Origin: Abditibacterium sp.
GTDB lineage: Bacteria; Armatimonadota; Abditibacteriia; Abditibacteriales; Abditibacteriaceae
NCBI GenBank assembly: GCA_965199495.1
Contig: CBDASK010000003.1
Span: 4,192,001 to 4,256,000 of the forward strand
DNA: 64,000 nucleotides
Direction: 5' to 3'
This document shows, piece after piece, positions 852 to 45,075 of the stretch. Positions within the stretch are counted from its first letter, which is position 1. Each line of letters begins with the position of its first letter. Both the position numbers and the translations under genes were made by a program. Under the pieces are notes generated by a model. The model was given only the letters and a program-made list of their open reading frames with translations. It was not told where the DNA came from and made no database searches.

Positions 852-2429
852 CTAAACGATCGCGATTTCGCGGGCCTCGGTTTCTTGCGGCGTTTCGATT
901 TCGCCTTCTTTATTTAATCGGAAACCGCCTTCGCTTTCGGGGCCGGGGTCGCCGCTCTCGAAAATCAGTTTGGTGAATTTCACGTCGTGCGGAATGTCAA
1001 TCGGATACTCGCCGTCGAAACAGGCGCGGCAAAACTTGTCTTTGGGCGCTTCGACCGCTTCCATCAAATTCTCCATCGAAATATAGGCCAACGAATCGGC
1101 GCCGTTGTATTGGCGGATGCCCTCGACATCGCGCTGAAACGCGATCAAATCTTTGCGCGCGGCGGTGTCAATGCCATAAAAACACGGCCATTGATACGGC
1201 GGACTCGAAATGCGCAAGTGAACTTCGGTCGCGCCAGCGTCGCGGATCATCTGCACGATGCGTTTGGTCGTGGTGCCGCGCACAATCGAATCTTCGACGA
1301 CAACGACGCGTTTGCCCTTCAAAACATCATCCAATGGCGAAAGTTTCATGCGCACGCCCAGTTCGCGTTGGGTTTGGTCGGGCGCGATGAAAGTGCGTTG
1401 AATGTAGCGATTTTTGATCAAGCCTTCCTGATAGGGAATGCCGCTTCCGGTCGCGTAACCGATGGCGGCGGGCAAACCCGAATCGGGCACGCCGATGACG
1501 ACATCGGCTTCGCACGGCGCCTGTTTCGCGAGCATTTCTCCCATGCGGCGGCGCGTGGCATGAACGCCTTTGCCCATTAACTGTGAATCGGGCCGCGCCA
1601 AGTAAATGAACTCGAAAATGCACAGCGCCTCGCGCTTGGCGTGGCCGGGCGCGTCGCCCTTGAAGTGAACCGATTCGACGCCCTCGGCGCCAATGAACAA
1701 AATTTCGCCCGGCTCGACTTCGCGCACGAACTCGGCGCCGACTGGCCCCAATGCGCAAGTTTCCGACGCCACAACCCAGCCTTCGCCATCGGTCAGTTTG
1801 CCCAGACAAAGCGGGCGCAAACCGTTGGGATCGCGCATCGCGATGAGACCATCGCGCGTCATCATTACCAGAGAATAGGCGCCCGAAACGCGCTCCATCA
1901 TCTTAATCAGCGCTTCTTCCAATGGCAATTCGGCGCCCGCTTCGATGAGTTTGGCCAACACTTCGGTGTCCATCGTCGTCGCGAAGTGCGCGCCGTCGCG
2001 CTCCAACGCCTCGCGCAGTTCGCGCGCGTTGACCAAGTTGCCGTTGTGCGCGAGGGCCAAAACGCCGTCGCTGCTCTGGCAAATCATCGGCTGCGAGTTG
2101 CACGCCTGCGAACCGCCGGTCGTCGAATAGCGATTGTGGCCGACGGCGATGTCGCCGGGCAGAGCGACCAGATTTTCTTCGTTGAAAATTTGCGTGACCA
2201 AACCCATATCGCAGTGAACGCGGATTTTTTCGCCATCGGAAACCGCGATGCCCGCGCTTTCCTGACCGCGATGTTGCAGCGCGAAAATGCCGAAGAAGGT
2301 GCGCCGCGCCACATCCACGCCGGGCGCGTAGATGCCGAAAACGCCGCACTCTTCCTGCGGACGGTCGGTGTCGCGCAGTTCGTCGTAATCGCCGAGGAAA
2401 TCGGGGTTTTGAAATTCGGAAGTCGTCAT
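852..2429 (-). CDS. purF: Amidophosphoribosyltransferase
   Basis: EECGVFG propeptide/N-terminal Cys, QHRGQESAG, HNRYSTTG, HNGNLVN, VVVEDSIVRGTT PRPP motif; ATG 2429 preferred over GTG 2462. Confidence 0.97.
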   Translation of the reverse strand: MTTSEFQNPDFLGDYDELRDTDRPQEECGVFGIYAPGVDVARRTFFGIFALQHRGQESAGIAVSDGEKIRVHCDMGLVTQIFNEENLVALPGDIAVGHNRYSTTGGSQACNSQPMICQSSDGVLALAHNGNLVNARELREALERDGAHFATTMDTEVLAKLIEAGAELPLEEALIKMMERVSGAYSLVMMTRDGLIAMRDPNGLRPLCLGKLTDGEGWVVASETCALGPVGAEFVREVEPGEILFIGAEGVESVHFKGDAPGHAKREALCIFEFIYLARPDSQLMGKGVHATRRRMGEMLAKQAPCEADVVIGVPDSGLPAAIGYATGSGIPYQEGLIKNRYIQRTFIAPDQTQRELGVRMKLSPLDDVLKGKRVVVVEDSIVRGTTTKRIVQMIRDAGATEVHLRISSPPYQWPCFYGIDTAARKDLIAFQRDVEGIRQYNGADSLAYISMENLMEAVEAPKDKFCRACFDGEYPIDIPHDVKFTKLIFESGDPGPESEGGFRLNKEGEIETPQETEAREIAIV

Positions 2430-36007: not shown

Positions 36008-36232
36008 TCAGGACGCGTGATATTCAATCAGGTCGCTGATACTGGAAACAGAAAAGTAGGCGCAGAGCGTGTCAAGTGTTGCAAGGCGAACGCCGTCGAT
36101 TTTGCCCGATGACACTCGATGGATTGTTGCCAGTGCAAGCCCGGTTTCAGAGGCTATTGTCCGCAGGGGTAAATCTCGTTGTTCCTCAAAAGCCTTGCGG
36201 CGCCGTAAATCTTGAAAGTGCGATTTCATCAT
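36008..36232 (-). CDS. XRE/Cro-like HTH transcriptional regulator
   Basis: LRTIASETGLALATIHRV..VRLATLDTLCAYF..ISDLIEY. Confidence 0.85.
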   Translation of the reverse strand: MMKSHFQDLRRRKAFEEQRDLPLRTIASETGLALATIHRVSSGKIDGVRLATLDTLCAYFSVSSISDLIEYHAS

Positions 36233-36312
36233 TCTGCCTTGAATTTTCACGCATAGGAAAGACTGTGTGTGCATTGTCCCTTATTTTATCACAAATTAAA
36301 TCTTTTTAGATT

Positions 36313-36350
36313 TTTTTGTTCTTGTATTCTATAACAAAAAGACTTAAACT
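36313..36350 (+). promoter_or_regulatory. Sigma70-like promoter with overlapping inverted-repeat operator
   Basis: TTGTAT(36322)-N17-TAAACT(36345); tttttgtt/aacaaaaa inverted repeat spanning the -35 box. Confidence 0.55.
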
Positions 36351-36443
36351 GTCGCCGTCCGGCGAAAAGGACGCCGATAAACAGAAACGCCCCGCTTGAA
36401 TCTTGGTAGGACGAAAAGCGGGGCGTTGGTAGGAATAAACCCA

Positions 36444-36977
36444 ATGGAAAATATACCACAAAACGCGGGCGATTTCAACGCCCCCAGTGAGAACGCCACC
36501 CCTGCCGTTTCTCCCACTCCTAACCAAGACCTGCTAAAGGTCGGACTTTTCTCGTCCGTTGACCTGATGGCTCTAAGAAGCTTTGGGGATACGCCGATGC
36601 AACTGGCGACGGCGGCGCAAGAGTTAATCGCCGCTACGGAAACTAAGCCTCGCAATGAGTGGGGCAACTACGGACGCTTTGATTTTTCGAGCCAAGCCGA
36701 TAGTGCCCGTAACGCTTATGCGGCGATTCGCATCTGTCGAACCGCCCTCGATTTCCTCGAAGCGGACTTGGCAAAATCGGTCGATTTTGAGAGCTACAAT
36801 TACCGGCAACAGGTATTGCTTTTCACCAAATGGTCGCCTCCAAAGTCAAGGGTAGAGAGTGCCGAGGATGCTTACTGGGAGTTAATGGAGCGGTTGAATG
36901 AGGCGGGCCTGTCTTACGATGAGTTCAAGGAAATCATGGACGAAGAGGCGGGCGACGATGGGGAGGTGGAAGCCTAG
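36444..36977 (+). CDS. Acidic hypothetical protein
   Basis: ATG after aggaat RBS; first gene of the plus-strand module. Confidence 0.65.
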   Translation: MENIPQNAGDFNAPSENATPAVSPTPNQDLLKVGLFSSVDLMALRSFGDTPMQLATAAQELIAATETKPRNEWGNYGRFDFSSQADSARNAYAAIRICRTALDFLEADLAKSVDFESYNYRQQVLLFTKWSPPKSRVESAEDAYWELMERLNEAGLSYDEFKEIMDEEAGDDGEVEA

Positions 36978-36979
36978 TC

Positions 36980-37017
36980 GGGCGACGTGGCTGCTGTTGA
37001 TAGCAGCCACGTCGCCC
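36980..37017. other. Perfect 16-bp intergenic hairpin
   Basis: gggcgacgtggctgct-gttgat-agcagccacgtcgccc. Confidence 0.75.
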
Positions 37018-37028
37018 TTGGCCTTGAC

Positions 37029-37376
37029 ATGAAACTACAAGCCAAAGGAGACAGCAAACAAAAGCGAGTGACTCGAATTGTCCTCGAAGCCGAAACGCGA
37101 GCCGACGAAGCGGTTTTATATGCGAAGTATTTGGAGTTGAAGGAAGAGACTCCTAAGCTCGCGTCAATCTACCAAGACGTGCTCGACCTGGTCGAAGAGG
37201 GCATCGGCCTCGCCTCCGAAATTTCCGATGCTCTCGACGTTCCTCTGACCGCAATGAACAACCGTCTGGCTCACCTCAAGAAGATGGGCCTCATAGAGCG
37301 CGAAAAGGTTGCCGCCCCTGCTGGCGGGCGCCGCTTCATTTATCGAATTAGTTCGACGGAACAAGGAGATGCTTGA
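37029..37376 (+). CDS. Winged-HTH (ArsR/MarR-like) protein
   Basis: ASEISDALDVPLTAMNNRLAHLKKMGLIER..GGRRFIY. Confidence 0.75.
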   Translation: MKLQAKGDSKQKRVTRIVLEAETRADEAVLYAKYLELKEETPKLASIYQDVLDLVEEGIGLASEISDALDVPLTAMNNRLAHLKKMGLIEREKVAAPAGGRRFIYRISSTEQGDA

Positions 37377-38005
37377 TGAGCGATAAAACTTTCGGCGCAC
37401 GACTGCGCCAGATGCGCGAGGCAGTCGGCATCAGTCGGCGTGACTTGGCGGCGCGCGCGCAACTTTCCGAAACGTATATCGAGAAGGTGGAGCGCGGATA
37501 CAATGCGCCGCCGTCGGCTTTAGCGATTGCCGACATTGCGCGCGCGCTCCGAGTTGACGGCGATGAGCTTTTCGCCCTTGCGGGCAAGCTGGCGCCCGAC
37601 TTGGAGCGCCGCTTACGTTCGGAGCCGTTATTAGTGCTGGCCTGTCGTGCAGCCACGGCGATGTCGTCTTCTGACTTGCGAGCCTTCTTGATCACGCAGG
37701 GAGTGAGCGGGGAGAAGATGGATTGGCAGGGCGCCGAGGTGACGATGAACGACGAAAGGCGGGTGCGGCGGGAGATTATCACTTCGGAAATGAAGCGCGC
37801 AGTCTTTCATCTTGACAGTCACGAGTGCGTTTATTGTTCGTCGGCGAAGTTGCTTGAAGTTGATCATGTTCAGCCGTTTTCATCGGGCGGCACCAATGAC
37901 ATTGAAAATCTGGTGACGGCTTGCGAGAGGTGTAACAAGAAGAAGTCGAATCGTGCCACGCCGTTTGTTATGGTGTTTGGGCGATTTCGGGGGGAGGTAA
38001 AATAA
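37373..38005 (+). CDS. XRE HTH - HNH endonuclease fusion
   Basis: N-terminal FGARLRQMREAVGISRRDLA; C-terminal CVYC..LEVDHVQPFSSGG..NLVTACERCNKKK. Confidence 0.85.
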   Translation: MMSDKTFGARLRQMREAVGISRRDLAARAQLSETYIEKVERGYNAPPSALAIADIARALRVDGDELFALAGKLAPDLERRLRSEPLLVLACRAATAMSSSDLRAFLITQGVSGEKMDWQGAEVTMNDERRVRREIITSEMKRAVFHLDSHECVYCSSAKLLEVDHVQPFSSGGTNDIENLVTACERCNKKKSNRATPFVMVFGRFRGEVK

Positions 38006-38007
38006 TT

Positions 38008-39345
38008 ATGAAACGAATGCGCGCCTACAAAGTGGAGCTTGCTCCGAATAATACTCAGAAAACCGCACTGCTTCGTCATTGCGGTGCGGCGCGATTCGTT
38101 TACAATTGGGGACTAAACGCCAAGATCGAAGCTCGCAAAGGCGGCGAAAAGCCTCTGTCCGCCCAAAAGCTGGACGGAGTTTTGCGCTCGATCATGGACG
38201 AAGAATTCCCTTGGATGCGAGAGGTTTCGTCCCAATGCCGCCAGGGGGCGCTCGCCAATCTTGAAGCGGCTTACAAGAATTTTTTCACTCGCTGCAAGAA
38301 AGGCAAAAAGGGGCGCGCAACTGGCTTTCCCAAATTCAAAAGTCGCAAGAATGGACTCGGAGGGTTCGTCGTCTTTGGATATACCATCACGAATGACTCG
38401 GTAAAAATCTCTCGCGTCGGCACCGTTCGACTCAAAGAAAAGGGCTATTTACCGATTGGAGGCTATGGAAAAAATTCTGATACCGTGCGCTTTTATGGTG
38501 CGAGAGTGAGTGAGCGGGCGGGTCGATGGTTCCTTTCTGTTCAAGTTGAGGTCGAAGCGCCCGAACCTGATCAGAAGTCGGAGAGGATTGTTGGCATAGA
38601 TTTCGGCGTGAAAACGTTAGCGGTTTGCAGCGATGGCACCACGTTTCAAAGCCCCAAGGCGCTCAAGGCCAATCTGAAGCGGCTGGCGCGCGCGCAACGT
38701 TCGATGAGCCGTAAGATTGAAGCGGCTAAGAAGTCTGGCCGCGCCTTGCGCGAGTGCAAAAACTTTCAGAAGTCAAAGACGCGCGTGGCGAAAATCCACG
38801 CGCGAGTGGCCGATTTGCGGCGCCATAATCTGCACCACGTTTCTCATGTGCTGACGCGAAAATCAAGCGTTTTGTGCATCGAAGATTTGAACGTGGCGGG
38901 CATGGTGAAAAATCGGCATTTGGCGCGCGCGATTAGCGATTTAGGCTTTGGAGAGTTACGCCGTCAAATCGAATATAAATCGGAGTGGCGCGGCGTTGAA
39001 GTCGTGATTGCAAATCGTTGGTTTCCCAGTTCAAAAACGTGTAATGCGTGCGGACTGGTGAATCAGGAATTACAGTTGAAGGATCGAGAATGGAAGTGTG
39101 AGTGTGGCGAGCGGCATGACCGCGATTTGAACGCCGCTTATAATTTGAGAGATTTGGCCGCGAATCGCGCGGTGTCTGACTGTGGAGGGAAAAGCTCTGG
39201 CGATGCGCTTGCGCGTCGTGAAACTATTCCCTGTGAAGCAGTAAGCGGGCTTGAAACTCTGGTTTCTATCAGCCCCGCACCTACTGAGAACAGTAGCATC
39301 CCTGTGTGGGCGGTCGGGAAAAACGGACAATTACGATGGTGTTAA
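38008..39345 (+). CDS. tnpB: TnpB / Cas12-like RNA-guided endonuclease, CRISPR-associated
   Basis: RAYKVEL..RFVYNWGL, GFPKFKSRK, RuvC-I VGIDFG, RuvC-II CIEDL, zinc finger CNAC/CECG, RuvC-III DRDLNAA; no tnpA nearby. Confidence 0.93.
   Translation: MKRMRAYKVELAPNNTQKTALLRHCGAARFVYNWGLNAKIEARKGGEKPLSAQKLDGVLRSIMDEEFPWMREVSSQCRQGALANLEAAYKNFFTRCKKGKKGRATGFPKFKSRKNGLGGFVVFGYTITNDSVKISRVGTVRLKEKGYLPIGGYGKNSDTVRFYGARVSERAGRWFLSVQVEVEAPEPDQKSERIVGIDFGVKTLAVCSDGTTFQSPKALKANLKRLARAQRSMSRKIEAAKKSGRALRECKNFQKSKTRVAKIHARVADLRRHNLHHVSHVLTRKSSVLCIEDLNVAGMVKNRHLARAISDLGFGELRRQIEYKSEWRGVEVVIANRWFPSSKTCNACGLVNQELQLKDREWKCECGERHDRDLNAAYNLRDLAANRAVSDCGGKSSGDALARRETIPCEAVSGLETLVSISPAPTENSSIPVWAVGKNGQLRWC
39180..39345 (+). 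ncRNA. Putative omegaRNA/tracrRNA-like scaffold with anti-repeat
   Basis: Hairpins gcgggcttga..tcagccccgc and ctactg-agaa-cagtag; anti-repeat catccctgtg-N9-gggaaaaac at 39297-39324; boundaries approximate. Confidence 0.6.
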
Positions 39346-39363
39346 ATCCTATCTGTCATGTGT

Positions 39364-39514
39364 GTTTTTCCCACACGCACAGGGATGGATGGAATACCTC
39401 AAGGCGACCGGCGAACTGCTCGATGTTTTTCCCACACGCACAGGGATGGATGGATTGTTTTCCGACCAACTACACCGAAGCGGGCGTTTTTCCCACACGC
39501 ACGGGGATGGATGG
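39364..39514 (+). CRISPR. CRISPR mini-array: 3 x 29-bp repeats, 2 x 32-bp spacers (type I-E-like)
   Basis: GTTTTTCCCACACGCAC(A/G)GGGATGGATGG at 39364, 39425 and 39486; spacers 39393-39424 and 39454-39485. Confidence 0.92.
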
Positions 39515-39723
39515 CCTTGGGAGGGGCCGGTTGCCTGATGCGTCATTATTGGTGTGGGGTGAAGGCACAATGGCTATATGTGGACTTTCTGCGCGGGTGG
39601 CGCCGCGCTTGCACAAAAGTCGCTTGGCATTTATATGGCGACGCGACAATCTCCCTCGAAAGAAATATGAGTAAGGCAATAGTAGCATTAGCGACCTCAT
39701 CGAATACTCGCCGCCATCATGAA

Positions 39724-39752
39724 GTGTTCCCCGCGAGTGCGGGGATGAACCG
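39724..39752 (+). CRISPR. Solitary canonical type I-E repeat
   Basis: GTGTTCCCCGCGAGTGCGGGGATGAACCG; no repeat 61 bp up- or downstream. Confidence 0.8.
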
Positions 39753-39834
39753 ACTGAGTGAGTTAGCTTTCGCAACGAAGCGATGGCAAAAGCGTCGTAT
39801 AAAGTCCCGCAAAGTGAATCTCTTCTTTTGACCC

Positions 39835-39862
39835 TTGTCAAAGGCATTAAATTCGCTAAAAT
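39835..39862 (+). promoter_or_regulatory. Sigma70-like promoter
   Basis: TTGTCA-N16-TAAAAT, then aggagg RBS before ATG 39903. Confidence 0.5.
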
Positions 39863-39902
39863 TAAGTGAGTGATTCATTCACTCACAGGAGGCAAAACAT
39901 CA

Positions 39903-40124
39903 ATGGCAATAAAATCACGGTCAAGGACGTTCACTGTCGAGCCGTCTTACACAGAACTGGTTAATCCCGCACTTTTTTTGAAGATGTGCAAAAGTAGCAG
40001 AGAAAACATCGAGTTCGTTCGCATAGTCCCGCCGCGCCTCGGCAGCAAAACGGTTGGCGGACGAATTTTGGTCAGGCGCAAAAAACCCATCTATCGGATG
40101 CCATTTCGGAGTCCGATTAAATGA
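39903..40124 (+). CDS. Small basic hypothetical protein (moron)
   Basis: Strong RBS; overlaps the next gene; low GC. Confidence 0.65.
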   Translation: MAIKSRSRTFTVEPSYTELVNPALFLKMCKSSRENIEFVRIVPPRLGSKTVGGRILVRRKKPIYRMPFRSPIK

Positions 40125-40588
40125 TGAATCTGCCTGAAAACAACAACTCAGCGTCAGAGCCACAATCCCTGATTCAAAACCCAGAAATTTTGGCTGTGAT
40201 GCTGAAAAACCAAGAGTCTGAAATTCGAGTCCGCAGCGAAGACATCAAGTTTAAAGACAAAGAGCTTGGCTTACGTGAACGAGAAATAGATAAAGCTCAC
40301 GAGTTCGCAATGAAGTCGCTTGATGTGCAGGCATCAGATAGAGTCGATGAAAGGAAGTTTCAAAGGTCTCTTACGACCAAAATATTTTTGTTTCTTGGGA
40401 TTGCCTTAAGCATGATTGTTTTGGGGTTCTGCTATGCCATTCATCTTGGTAAAGATGCAATCGTGATGGAAATTGTCAAAGCGATGATTTATCTGGGTGC
40501 TGGCGGTCTTGGTGGCTACTCTGCAAAATCCACCAAAGATAAAAAGAAAAATGATGATGAAAGCTGGGCAGAAGAAGACGAGGATTGA
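40121..40588 (+). CDS. Coiled-coil, two-TM membrane protein (DUF2335-like, moron)
   Basis: N-terminal coiled coil, two TM helices, GLGGY motif; low GC. Confidence 0.65.
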   Translation: MMNLPENNNSASEPQSLIQNPEILAVMLKNQESEIRVRSEDIKFKDKELGLREREIDKAHEFAMKSLDVQASDRVDERKFQRSLTTKIFLFLGIALSMIVLGFCYAIHLGKDAIVMEIVKAMIYLGAGGLGGYSAKSTKDKKKNDDESWAEEDED

Positions 40589-40597
40589 ATAATGAAT

Positions 40598-40630
40598 AAA
40601 AGGGACTGGCGAATTCGCCAGTCCCTTTTT
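40598..40630. terminator. Bidirectional intrinsic terminator
   Basis: aaaagggactggcgaattcgccagtcccttttt. Confidence 0.85.
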
Positions 40631-40667
40631 GCTTTTTCGAGAGTTTTGATTTAAAATTGAGGGCACT

Positions 40668-41471
40668 ATGCAATGCCCCTTCTGCTCTTACCAATTATCT
40701 GACTTCGAGGATGCCGCTCACTGCCCTAAATGTCATGGCAAAGGCATCCCGAAACCTACTATTGTGCCGCCACAGTCGCCACCCCATGTTCCCTATAATC
40801 CGACGATTCCCCACGCCCTAACTCCCATCAAACGCGGCCCCAACGCGTGGCTGATCTTGGCGATTGCCGGAGGCGTCTTCGCCTTCATCCTGGCGCTGCC
40901 CCTTCTGTTGGTTGGCGGATTGGTCGGAGTTGGCAGCCAAATCAAAGGGCAAATCGAGGCCGATAACAACGCCGCACTCTCCGCAAACTCGGCATTGCCC
41001 GCGCCGACCATAGCTCCAGTTGGGGCACCAGTCTTTGTCCCAACGCCGTTTTCAACTCCAACGAGTGCACTACCCAAAGCGCGGACTGTGGCACCTGCCG
41101 CCGATGAATCGTCGGGACTGCCTCAATTTGAGGCGGCGAGCGGCTGGGTTGTTTACGCGCGAAAGAGCATGGATGCCATTCGCTCGGCTCCCTCGTCGCA
41201 GATCGCATCGCTGCAGTATCTGGAATTGCTGAGTTTGGAACGCGACCTCGAAACCGAGAAGCAACGAGCCATTGCCGCGCGCCAGCCGGGTCGCGCCACA
41301 ACATTCGGTATCGTCGCCGAAGTGCCGCGCGCTCTGGCTGAAGCCGCCGATACCCGCGCCAAATTCCTGCGCGGAACCTTGGGCGAACGCGAATACCGCG
41401 CTTACATGAGCGGCTCAGACACCACGACCGACTTTGTGGCGCGTCAGGCCGATGGCCGAGCATCACGTTAG
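40668..41471 (+). CDS. Zinc-ribbon, single-TM membrane protein
   Basis: CPFC..CPKC, Pro-rich linker, TM helix. Confidence 0.65.
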   Translation: MQCPFCSYQLSDFEDAAHCPKCHGKGIPKPTIVPPQSPPHVPYNPTIPHALTPIKRGPNAWLILAIAGGVFAFILALPLLLVGGLVGVGSQIKGQIEADNNAALSANSALPAPTIAPVGAPVFVPTPFSTPTSALPKARTVAPAADESSGLPQFEAASGWVVYARKSMDAIRSAPSSQIASLQYLELLSLERDLETEKQRAIAARQPGRATTFGIVAEVPRALAEAADTRAKFLRGTLGEREYRAYMSGSDTTTDFVARQADGRASR

Positions 41472-43571: not shown

Positions 43572-44131
43572 TCCGCGTCCTCGCGCCCGATGCCCGATTT
43601 CTCGATCACCCTCAGCATCACGAGCTGCTGGTCGTCGCCGTTGAGTTGGCCAAACGCTTTGACCGAAAATGGGCGCTCGTAATCCCATCCGGCGAGGGTC
43701 TTCTCGAACACCCAGCGCGCGATCATCGCGTTTTCTTGCTGAGCGTTGCGATAACCCTGCTGCAATCGCTGGCGCAGCGCCACGGCCTCGTCGTGTTTGC
43801 CTTCTGTATCAAGCTCCTGCGCGCGTGGCTCTTCCAGAGCGGGCGCGCGCATGGCGGCGACGACGGCCTTGCAACGAGTCACAAACTCGCCGTATGTCTC
43901 GTCATCCATCTCGCGCGCATAAACCACGCCGCCGGTCGTCGGCACCTCAAAGGTGTAAACATTCGCGCCCTGCTCATCACGAAAAGCGGCTCTACGCAAA
44001 CCGGCGGGGACAAACGTTTGTTCGACGAGAGTGCCATCAGCAGTGAGTTCGGCTTCGGGCACTTCGGTTGGGGCTTTCGCCACGGGGGCTTTGCGAGTTC
44101 TGGGATTGGAATTAGGTTTGGACATGATCAA
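43541..44131 (-). CDS. Tail assembly chaperone (gpG-like)
   Basis: Between tail tube and tape measure; LAGWD motif; slippery site near the 3' end. Confidence 0.72.
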   Translation of the reverse strand: MIMSKPNSNPRTRKAPVAKAPTEVPEAELTADGTLVEQTFVPAGLRRAAFRDEQGANVYTFEVPTTGGVVYAREMDDETYGEFVTRCKAVVAAMRAPALEEPRAQELDTEGKHDEAVALRQRLQQGYRNAQQENAMIARWVFEKTLAGWDYERPFSVKAFGQLNGDDQQLVMLRVIEKSGIGREDADFLVDDLLAL

Positions 44132-45075
44132 ATCAAAGTGAGTTCGAGCGAATCGGCAGTAAAAGGCACGGAAAAATCGAGTTCGCCGTTGCTTTCAACG
44201 CCCTGCATCGTTTCGTCAGAAGGAAACGGGCCGTGAATCGTCAACTCGAAACCTTTGTTTGCTTCGACATCGCTGCATCCGACGACGATGCTCTCCCAAT
44301 CCTGCGCTAAAACAGAACCATCAAACAGCGCCTTGGCCAAGCGCGCATGAAGCGACATTTCGCCGTCAACTTTTTGCTGATGATCCATCAGTTCAAACGC
44401 AGTGATAGAAGACGGCGCGTTGTCGCCGTAAAAAGGCGTGTTACTTTTGGCCTCGACGGAATAATCTGCCTTAGCTGTAAGGTTAATCAGATAGCGGCGG
44501 TAATTTTTGACCGCGCCAGTGCTGTCGGTCAAGTTGCACTTTTTCACGTCGTGCCACATCAAAGGCGTGCCCAGCGCGCGCAATTGGGCCGGAGTGACAA
44601 CCAGAGCACCTATCTCCTGCCGCTCAATCGCCATGAAGTTGGCGGTGACGTTGAGTTCGCCGCCGCCATCGGCGCTCCCGCCAAAATTGAAATCAACCGA
44701 ACCGGGCTTGCAGTGACGGTAAACGATGGTATATTGGCCTTTGACGACGACGAAAATCGCCAGATAAGGCAACTTGCCATTGGCATCTGGGAACAACTGC
44801 GCCAGAGCAGCCACGTTGCCGGGCCGAACGGCGACCGTGATCGTCGGCTTGCGCATCCCGCGCTTATTATAGGCCGCACCCTGTTGGCCGACGGCGTAAC
44901 CCTTGGAGTTGTTGAGTCCGCGATTGTTTTGCGGAGAATCGGTATAGCCCAGCACGACTGGCGACGAAGGCACCGACGGATAGGCCGCCATCGTGCCGTC
45001 GTCGAGCAGGTCGGGCGGCGGCGCGGTTTCAATCGCGTAAAGCACAGCAACGTCGTGCGCAGGAATAAATGGCAT
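44128..45075 (-). CDS. Major tail tube protein
   Basis: Size, beta-rich composition and position; C-terminal ELDFSVPFTA. Confidence 0.65.
   Translation of the reverse strand: MPFIPAHDVAVLYAIETAPPPDLLDDGTMAAYPSVPSSPVVLGYTDSPQNNRGLNNSKGYAVGQQGAAYNKRGMRKPTITVAVRPGNVAALAQLFPDANGKLPYLAIFVVVKGQYTIVYRHCKPGSVDFNFGGSADGGGELNVTANFMAIERQEIGALVVTPAQLRALGTPLMWHDVKKCNLTDSTGAVKNYRRYLINLTAKADYSVEAKSNTPFYGDNAPSSITAFELMDHQQKVDGEMSLHARLAKALFDGSVLAQDWESIVVGCSDVEANKGFELTIHGPFPSDETMQGVESNGELDFSVPFTADSLELTLI

Follow-up and report, generated by a model that had tools for sequence, protein, structure and literature searches.

The window, by which we mean the whole 64,000-nucleotide stretch of Abditibacterium DNA analysed here, contains a prophage with a 5.5-kb accessory cassette (36008–41471) inserted between two genes of its tail module; portal, terminase, capsid and integrase genes lie nearby. 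The cassette holds HTH genes, an HTH-HNH fusion gene (37373–38005), tnpB directly behind it (38008–39345), a short repeat array, a lone repeat and small ORFs; tnpB and the RNA and repeat features described below are all on the plus strand. Four related prophage regions (G012a, G010, G002 C91 and G002 C162) have the orthologs of these tail-module genes side by side, with no match to a cassette gene between them.

The TnpB protein (445 aa), recognized by Pfam and NCBIfam models, retains the catalytic RuvC residues D198, E292 and D373 and all four zinc-finger cysteines. It aligns with TnpB structures at E about 1e-61, far closer than with LaTranC (about 1e-23) or Cas12f, and scores 291 bits against the NCBIfam model IS607_TnpB, under the 350-bit cut-off of that model. 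All six upstream ORFs chosen for testing in relatives (40–49% identity) encode a resolvase-type TnpA, which places the protein in the IS607 lineage, and the features of both TnpB and its omegaRNA agree with this assignment. Those of a mobile IS607 element are missing: the gene is present in a single copy, its upstream neighbor is the HTH-HNH gene and not a serine-recombinase tnpA, and its right end is decayed. The HTH-HNH gene has a 52% ortholog in G002, in the prophage with the sister TnpB. For the target-adjacent motif (TAM), a comparison of paired IS copies yielded no more than G-rich left boundaries.

The repeat array and the lone repeat

The array starts 18 nt past the tnpB stop codon and comprises three 29-nt repeats (39364–39392, 39425–39453 and 39486–39514) and two 32-nt spacers (39393–39424 and 39454–39485), with a period of 61. 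Repeat 3 differs from the other two by a single base, one nearer the type I-E consensus. The 32 bp behind it (39515–39546) could be a third guide and are followed by a weak half-repeat remnant (39552–39563), a marginal fourth repeat whose score is equalled by 86 of 1976 random stretches. In the 4.8-Mb genome, the array repeat occurs nowhere else at up to seven mismatches, save for one stretch with seven. A 14-mer past the array (39546–39559) is identical to one beside an HTH gene in a G002 prophage cassette (L093, 16619–16632).

At 209 nt past the array, a canonical type I-E repeat stands alone (39724–39752). It is the sole genome copy within five mismatches, is two mismatches from the array repeat of G016, and differs from the array repeat at 11 of 29 positions. 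The predicted folding energy is −5.9/−6.4 kcal/mol for the array repeat, −14.4 kcal/mol for the lone repeat and −10.0 to −14.4 kcal/mol for type I-E repeats of the same taxonomic family. The original prediction had described a 29-bp repeat with 32-bp spacers, unlike the canonical copy at 39724 and with a weaker stem, and these measurements bear it out on each point.

The array repeat is probably derived from type I-E, as that prediction also proposed. The 29-nt repeat and 32-nt spacer are the geometry of a type I-E array (spacers of 32 nt make up 140 of 144 in family I-E arrays), and the array repeat has nine mismatches (repeat 3 has eight) to the I-E repeat of a genome of the same genus (G006), i.e., 20–21 of 29 bases are identical, including the unusual TTTCCCAC common to both. 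Against family I-E repeats, the array repeat differs at 9–14 bases and the lone repeat at 2–7. By computation, the array repeat lacks the stable palindromic hairpin and canonical 3′ end of a type I-E repeat suited to Cas6e.

The lone repeat is a candidate for either a Racr-like unit or a relic of the donor array. The available text on Racr solitary repeat units (PMC10651486) would cover a lone canonical I-E repeat carried by a prophage, whereas the host here has no matching subtype; the likeness covers the lone repeat only. In G003, where Cas6e gave no match, a mini-array of two I-E-like repeats and one more such repeat on its own are seen at L245 ~8842 (minus) and L246 ~5773 (minus).

A predicted two-part guide RNA

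The 3′ part of tnpB overlaps a predicted omegaRNA-derived scaffold (39155–39293), which resembles the 5′ part of a tracrRNA. A covariance model built from 30 related omegaRNAs matches 39155–39286 with 55 bits (E about 1e-14), and the stretch 39130–39425 folds with a z-score of −4.5; Rfam gave no match at E ≤ 1 over 38800–40200. Just upstream is a possible, weak, internal sigma-70-like promoter (39116–39144, 10 of 12 positions matching), one of two such sites found against 1.1 expected in shuffles.

The RNA of this omegaRNA family ends in a GAGAACGG-like motif, the GAAC of which forms a pseudoknot with the first hairpin's loop. IS607 TnpB proteins need a pseudoknot of this kind to be active, according to the text available of PMC10711439 and PMC11061315. 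All four pairs are kept in 41 of 42 family loci, a count from which 12 loci without an anchor were dropped and for which right ends were located by motif pattern. Across the 30 aligned sequences this helix is fully (100%) paired, and two of its four pairs show two-sided changes, which stem from few, partly related sequences. In the window, the loop (39163–39167) of the pseudoknot hairpin (39158–39172) is altered from the family consensus. It forms just one of the four pairs with the old right end (39286–39293), which aligns with the family end, has decayed and is closed in a 6-bp hairpin (39281–39296) that is part of the minimum-free-energy fold. With the 3′ end of the array repeat, which has been remodelled to end in GG like a scaffold, the loop forms three of four pairs, including two matched changes.

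Directly behind the old end, the ancestral guide slot is occupied by a 28-nt anti-repeat (39297–39324), which the original prediction overlooked. The duplex between anti-repeat and array repeat is predicted at −35.2 kcal/mol, against a mean of −12.4 and a best value of −32.1 kcal/mol for about 2000 random stretches of the window. Duplexes with the lone repeat (−27.2 kcal/mol) and with four canonical family I-E repeats (−25.3 to −32.1 kcal/mol) are weaker. In the predicted cofold, the anti-repeat also pairs in trans with repeat 2. Together with the pseudoknot fit, this duplex lends support to the earlier suggestion that the repeat has drifted to suit the TnpB scaffold.

The DNA that overlaps the RNA encodes TnpB residues 388–445, for which AlphaFold confidence (pLDDT) is below 50 at residues 388–437 and 439–445. 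Five other close proteins (P0002–P0006) have the same peptide tail as the one that the window's anti-repeat DNA encodes, and since the tail is of low confidence in the model, its conservation is better explained by the RNA. From the peptide tails alone, arrays are predicted beside P0002–P0006. Covariation at the amino-acid level over the small hairpin was set aside, its constraints being too loose.

Among the entries checked for an array, L074 (in G002) is the only close relative with readable DNA. Its TnpB is 65–67% identical, is also prophage-borne, has HTH and HTH-HNH genes as neighbors like the window TnpB, and lacks an array. The L074 loop forms two of four pairs with its old end and three of four with a new end 22 nt further on, and the new end equals the repeat end of the window at eight of nine bases. 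At ~1414–1497 (minus), L074 also contains a degenerate second unit of scaffold end and guide, 51 nt after the first and with similar guides; these guides have no convincing target in the fetched loci or the host genome (G000). A tree computed with the tails removed places the L074 protein next to P0005 as its sister, within a 100/99 clade of nine proteins; six of the nine have the tail that the window's anti-repeat DNA encodes. The clade ancestor would thus have had the anti-repeat, and L074 would have collapsed to a one-piece guide.

Array association in this clade stands at one locus with an array, one close locus without, and five proteins that carry the tail, judged from protein sequence. 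No array lies beside other full-length TnpBs with at least 500 nt of downstream DNA (122 entries, two of which are the same G002 locus). The clade motif is found in G000 and G002 only among 401 genomes of the phylum, and viral contigs gave no match to the repeat and clade motifs; two distant loci were all that a further search yielded. Metagenome relatives are 40–49% identical among the matches listed, which leaves room for closer loci. No RNA run is listed among the sequencing runs. Contigs of the sequencing run X1, possibly the source sample, contain no array variant, and X2 and X3 gave scattered pieces only.

Spacer targets, host systems and the proposed mechanism

Spacer 2 matches contig C107 of G003, a genome of the same genus, at 27 of 32 positions and in frame. 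The gene hit is a structural one in a related prophage and is orthologous to window gene 44128–45075; gene order suggests that it is probably the tail tube gene (no PHROG match). Four of the five mismatches are synonymous third positions, and a match of this grade is expected about 0.002 times by chance across 27 genomes. The phage's own ortholog has at best 13 mismatches to spacer 2, and it and ten other orthologs have best values of 12–15. The first 8 nt contain three of the five mismatches, which makes the G003 prophage a relative of the actual target. Of the coding character that the original prediction gave both spacers, that of spacer 2 is thus confirmed.

For spacer 1, no target was found: viral contigs gave no match, its degenerate pattern is absent from all 26 family genomes, three-mismatch matches number four against three for controls, and BLAST against phages and plasmids returned only hits of E ≥ 0.8. 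A 22/32 stretch in a G002 prophage was judged a chance match. Viral contigs do not contain the degenerate pattern of spacer 2 either, and the possible third guide (39515–39546) has no target in the window, the host genome, the fetched prophages or further searches. In the window and the host genome, the best match to a spacer has 9 of 32 mismatches, in line with the earlier failure to find one in the window by eye.

The 5′ flank of the spacer 2 protospacer, a single diverged site, ends in GGGCG and not in the AAG of a type I-E PAM, and the base immediately 5′ of the protospacer is G, like the last base of the repeat. Type I-E acquisition keeps the last G of the PAM as the final repeat base. 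The last G of the flank would fit both I-E acquisition and the G-rich TAMs of IS607 TnpBs, between which one diverged site decides nothing. Those TAMs include GGG, AGGAG and GAGGG (PMC10711439 and PMC11061315, in the text available).

The host genome has one cas1 gene, scored as Cas1b, in a type I-B locus (Cas6-Cas7b-Cas5b-Cas3-Cas4-Cas1-Cas2), and one other CRISPR array genome-wide, of 131 repeats. Cas6e, Cse1 and Cas7e were not found in this genome (95% complete, in three contigs) by a search of imperfect sensitivity, its controls being positive in Thermus but not in E. coli. The repeat is probably I-E-derived, but the host, with only a type I-B system, has no visible means to feed or read the repeat as type I-E. 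The proposal that the host's own I-E Cas1-Cas2 supplied the spacers is thus unsupported for the present host, and the case weighed against it, an identical repeat in a host I-E array with Cascade loading these crRNAs, is not found either. Any I-E adaptation must have occurred in another host, which is possible given that 5 of the 26 other family genomes (1 of 12 within the genus) encode Cas6e. We regard acquisition in a former host or an alternative one, through its I-E Cas1-Cas2, as the likeliest route, with about even confidence. None of the 144 family I-E spacers matches this phage, its own genome or the fetched prophages within six mismatches, and no family I-E PAM could be derived. As for the I-B array, its spacer 69 matches the prophage at window ~28148 (G000:C3:4220148) with 4 of 38 mismatches, so the host lineage had met a relative of this prophage; spacer 37 is a perfect self-match within a chromosomal gene (G000:C3:593119, L250).

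We consider it likely, on sequence evidence, that the locus is a nascent tracrRNA-type (TranC-like) type V system for phage–phage conflict, as opposed to a plain mini-array for Cascade. In this reading, a temperate phage would have domesticated an IS607-type TnpB, whose single omegaRNA would have been converted into a two-part guide. The old scaffold and the anti-repeat would play the tracrRNA role, whereas each I-E-derived repeat would pair with the anti-repeat, provide the 3′ strand of the pseudoknot and end in GG; the first 16–20 nt of the next spacer would be the guide, and the nuclease would cut the DNA of competing phages beside a G-rich TAM. The anatomy, the scaffold homology, the complementarity, the phage-derived spacer and the lack of detectable I-E genes in the host are observed, and from them we infer expression, processing, cleavage and the TAM. 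This system is favored by the scaffold homology, the best fit of the anti-repeat to the array repeat, the matched changes of loop and repeat end, and the intact RuvC domain; by the match of spacer 2 to a related prophage while the phage's own ortholog has diverged; by the same end shift in L074 and the tail kept by P0002–P0006; and by the precedents of TranC systems from IS605/IS607 lineages (PMC13639567) and of Cas12r. We count against it the single readable array locus, the one protospacer, the full pairing of the loop with an alternative end (see below), the 144 family I-E spacers without a match in phage or prophages, and the lack of I-E adaptation genes in the present host.

More tentatively, the tracrRNA may have arisen by insertion and not by splitting. 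An IS607 element would have landed on the GG that ends a reversed I-E repeat, so that the old guide slot became the anti-repeat, and a sense I-E mini-array would then have taken over the pseudoknot. The PAM-derived terminal G left by I-E Cas1-Cas2 would double as the last base of the scaffold, and this small phage clade would have a functional type V system whose spacers come from class 1 adaptation, L074 having collapsed back to a one-piece guide.

The same effector could instead have gained its spacers free of Cas1-Cas2, by recombination or duplication of omegaRNA ends or as repair scars, the I-E likeness being a relic of the origin of the repeat. The absence of an I-E Cas1 from the host, the strongly remodelled 3′ end of the repeat, the degenerate second guide unit of L074 and the omegaRNA arrays and serial duplication discussed in the available text of PMC10691335 would all agree with such a gain. 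It would leave to coincidence that both spacers are exactly 32 nt, like nearly all family I-E spacers, that the repeats hardly differ and the copy closer to type I-E is the distal one, that the base just 5′ of the protospacer is G like the one that ends the repeat and, weakly, that the leader ends in GT as in three of four family I-E leaders; we hold this account to be possible but somewhat doubtful.

A one-piece omegaRNA ending at 39339, with 39340–39359 as its guide and the array vestigial, is unlikely. The alternative end (39334–39339) forms all four pairs with the loop, more than the repeat end does, but is predicted to be paired in the cis fold and is unlike the L074 end, which instead resembles the repeat end. 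Furthermore, the peptide tails of P0002–P0006 do not suggest its conservation, its guide has no target among the fetched prophages, and the anti-repeat would be left unexplained. Still less probable is that the array is next to tnpB by chance and serves as an ordinary phage mini-array for the Cascade of a host I-E system, or as a decoy RNA directed at that Cascade: the geometry, the canonical repeat downstream and the I-E systems of the family would suit it, but the array repeat is without the hairpin strength and 3′ end of type I-E, Cascade genes were not found in the host, and the anti-repeat inside the TnpB RNA fits the array repeat best. Supply by the present host's I-B Cas1-Cas2-Cas4, although the sole adaptation module found in the genome, is scarcely tenable, as the repeat sequence is unrelated and none of the 130 I-B spacers is 32 nt long (range 33–39 nt).

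Comparison with known systems

The descriptions of known systems that follow are those of the available text of each source. Candidate groups V-U6 to V-U45 (PMC10691335), like the window, have a short array downstream of tnpB and no adaptation genes, and about 50 independent TnpB-to-Cas12 events are counted in PMC12669027; insertion near a pre-existing array is named as a possible route (PMC10691335/PMC12669027). The origin of array, tracrRNA and adaptation for TnpB is open between de novo duplication of the omegaRNA end and array capture (PMC10691335). The capture route is directly testable here, since the window preserves in legible form the anti-repeat and the old right end, as well as the re-coupled pseudoknot and the family of the donor repeat, and L074 seems to record the step in reverse. 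The literature searched describes no IS607 TnpB that combines I-E-derived repeats with an anti-repeat; those results did not include Jin et al. 2025, and supplementary clade lists may include this clade.

With the TnpB and reRNA of IS607 elements ISXfa1 (PMC10711439) and ISFba1 (PMC11061315), the window shares the serine-recombinase TnpA of its relatives, the scaffold ending in GG, the pseudoknot and the G-rich element ends. It differs in having no TnpA, a single copy, a decayed right end and an attached CRISPR-like array.

A phage TnpB with I-E-like repeats and proposed host I-E adaptation is already known from Cas12r of the Thermus Lalka phages (10.64898/2026.04.20.719267), a TnpB-like nuclease with degenerate 29-bp I-E-like repeats. 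Both are temperate phages with a TnpB-like effector followed by a short array, no cas1 or cas2, and spacers against other mobile elements (31–33 nt in Cas12r, 32 nt in the window). In Cas12r, the stretch past the last repeat is made into a guide, and by analogy a third guide after repeat 3 is plausible. Cas12r (564 aa against 445) has no significant BLASTP similarity to the window TnpB (best E 1.2), is described without a tracrRNA, in contrast to the predicted omegaRNA-derived scaffold and anti-repeat, and uses an ARG PAM, whereas the single flank available here is G-rich and the host lacks I-E. GTCATGT occurs shortly before the first repeat of both arrays (Lalka, L202 8519–8525; window, 39355–39361), which may be chance. 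The idea of the original prediction has thus already been published for another system.

TranC effectors are TnpB-sized and of IS605/IS607 descent, with the reRNA divided into tracrRNA and crRNA (PMC13639567, 10.1101/2025.09.28.678669 and 10.64898/2026.03.27.714800). The window TnpB likewise has an intact RuvC domain, a downstream array and a predicted reRNA-derived tracrRNA that pairs with the repeat, and CauTranC9 is similarly phage-borne and TnpB-sized. However, TranC repeats are 32–38 bp and of unknown subtype (10.64898/2026.03.27.714800), against 29 bp and I-E-derived in the window; the predicted repeat:anti-repeat stem stands behind the still visible old right end and does not split an internal stem; and LaTranC is only distantly similar to the window TnpB (E about 1e-23 over residues 248–387). 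In sum, the system would work like a TranC, and we do not assign it to a numbered clade. If true, it would be a roughly 390-aa multiplexable nuclease and would add a second instance, independent of Cas12r, in which a phage TnpB converged on type I-E repeats.
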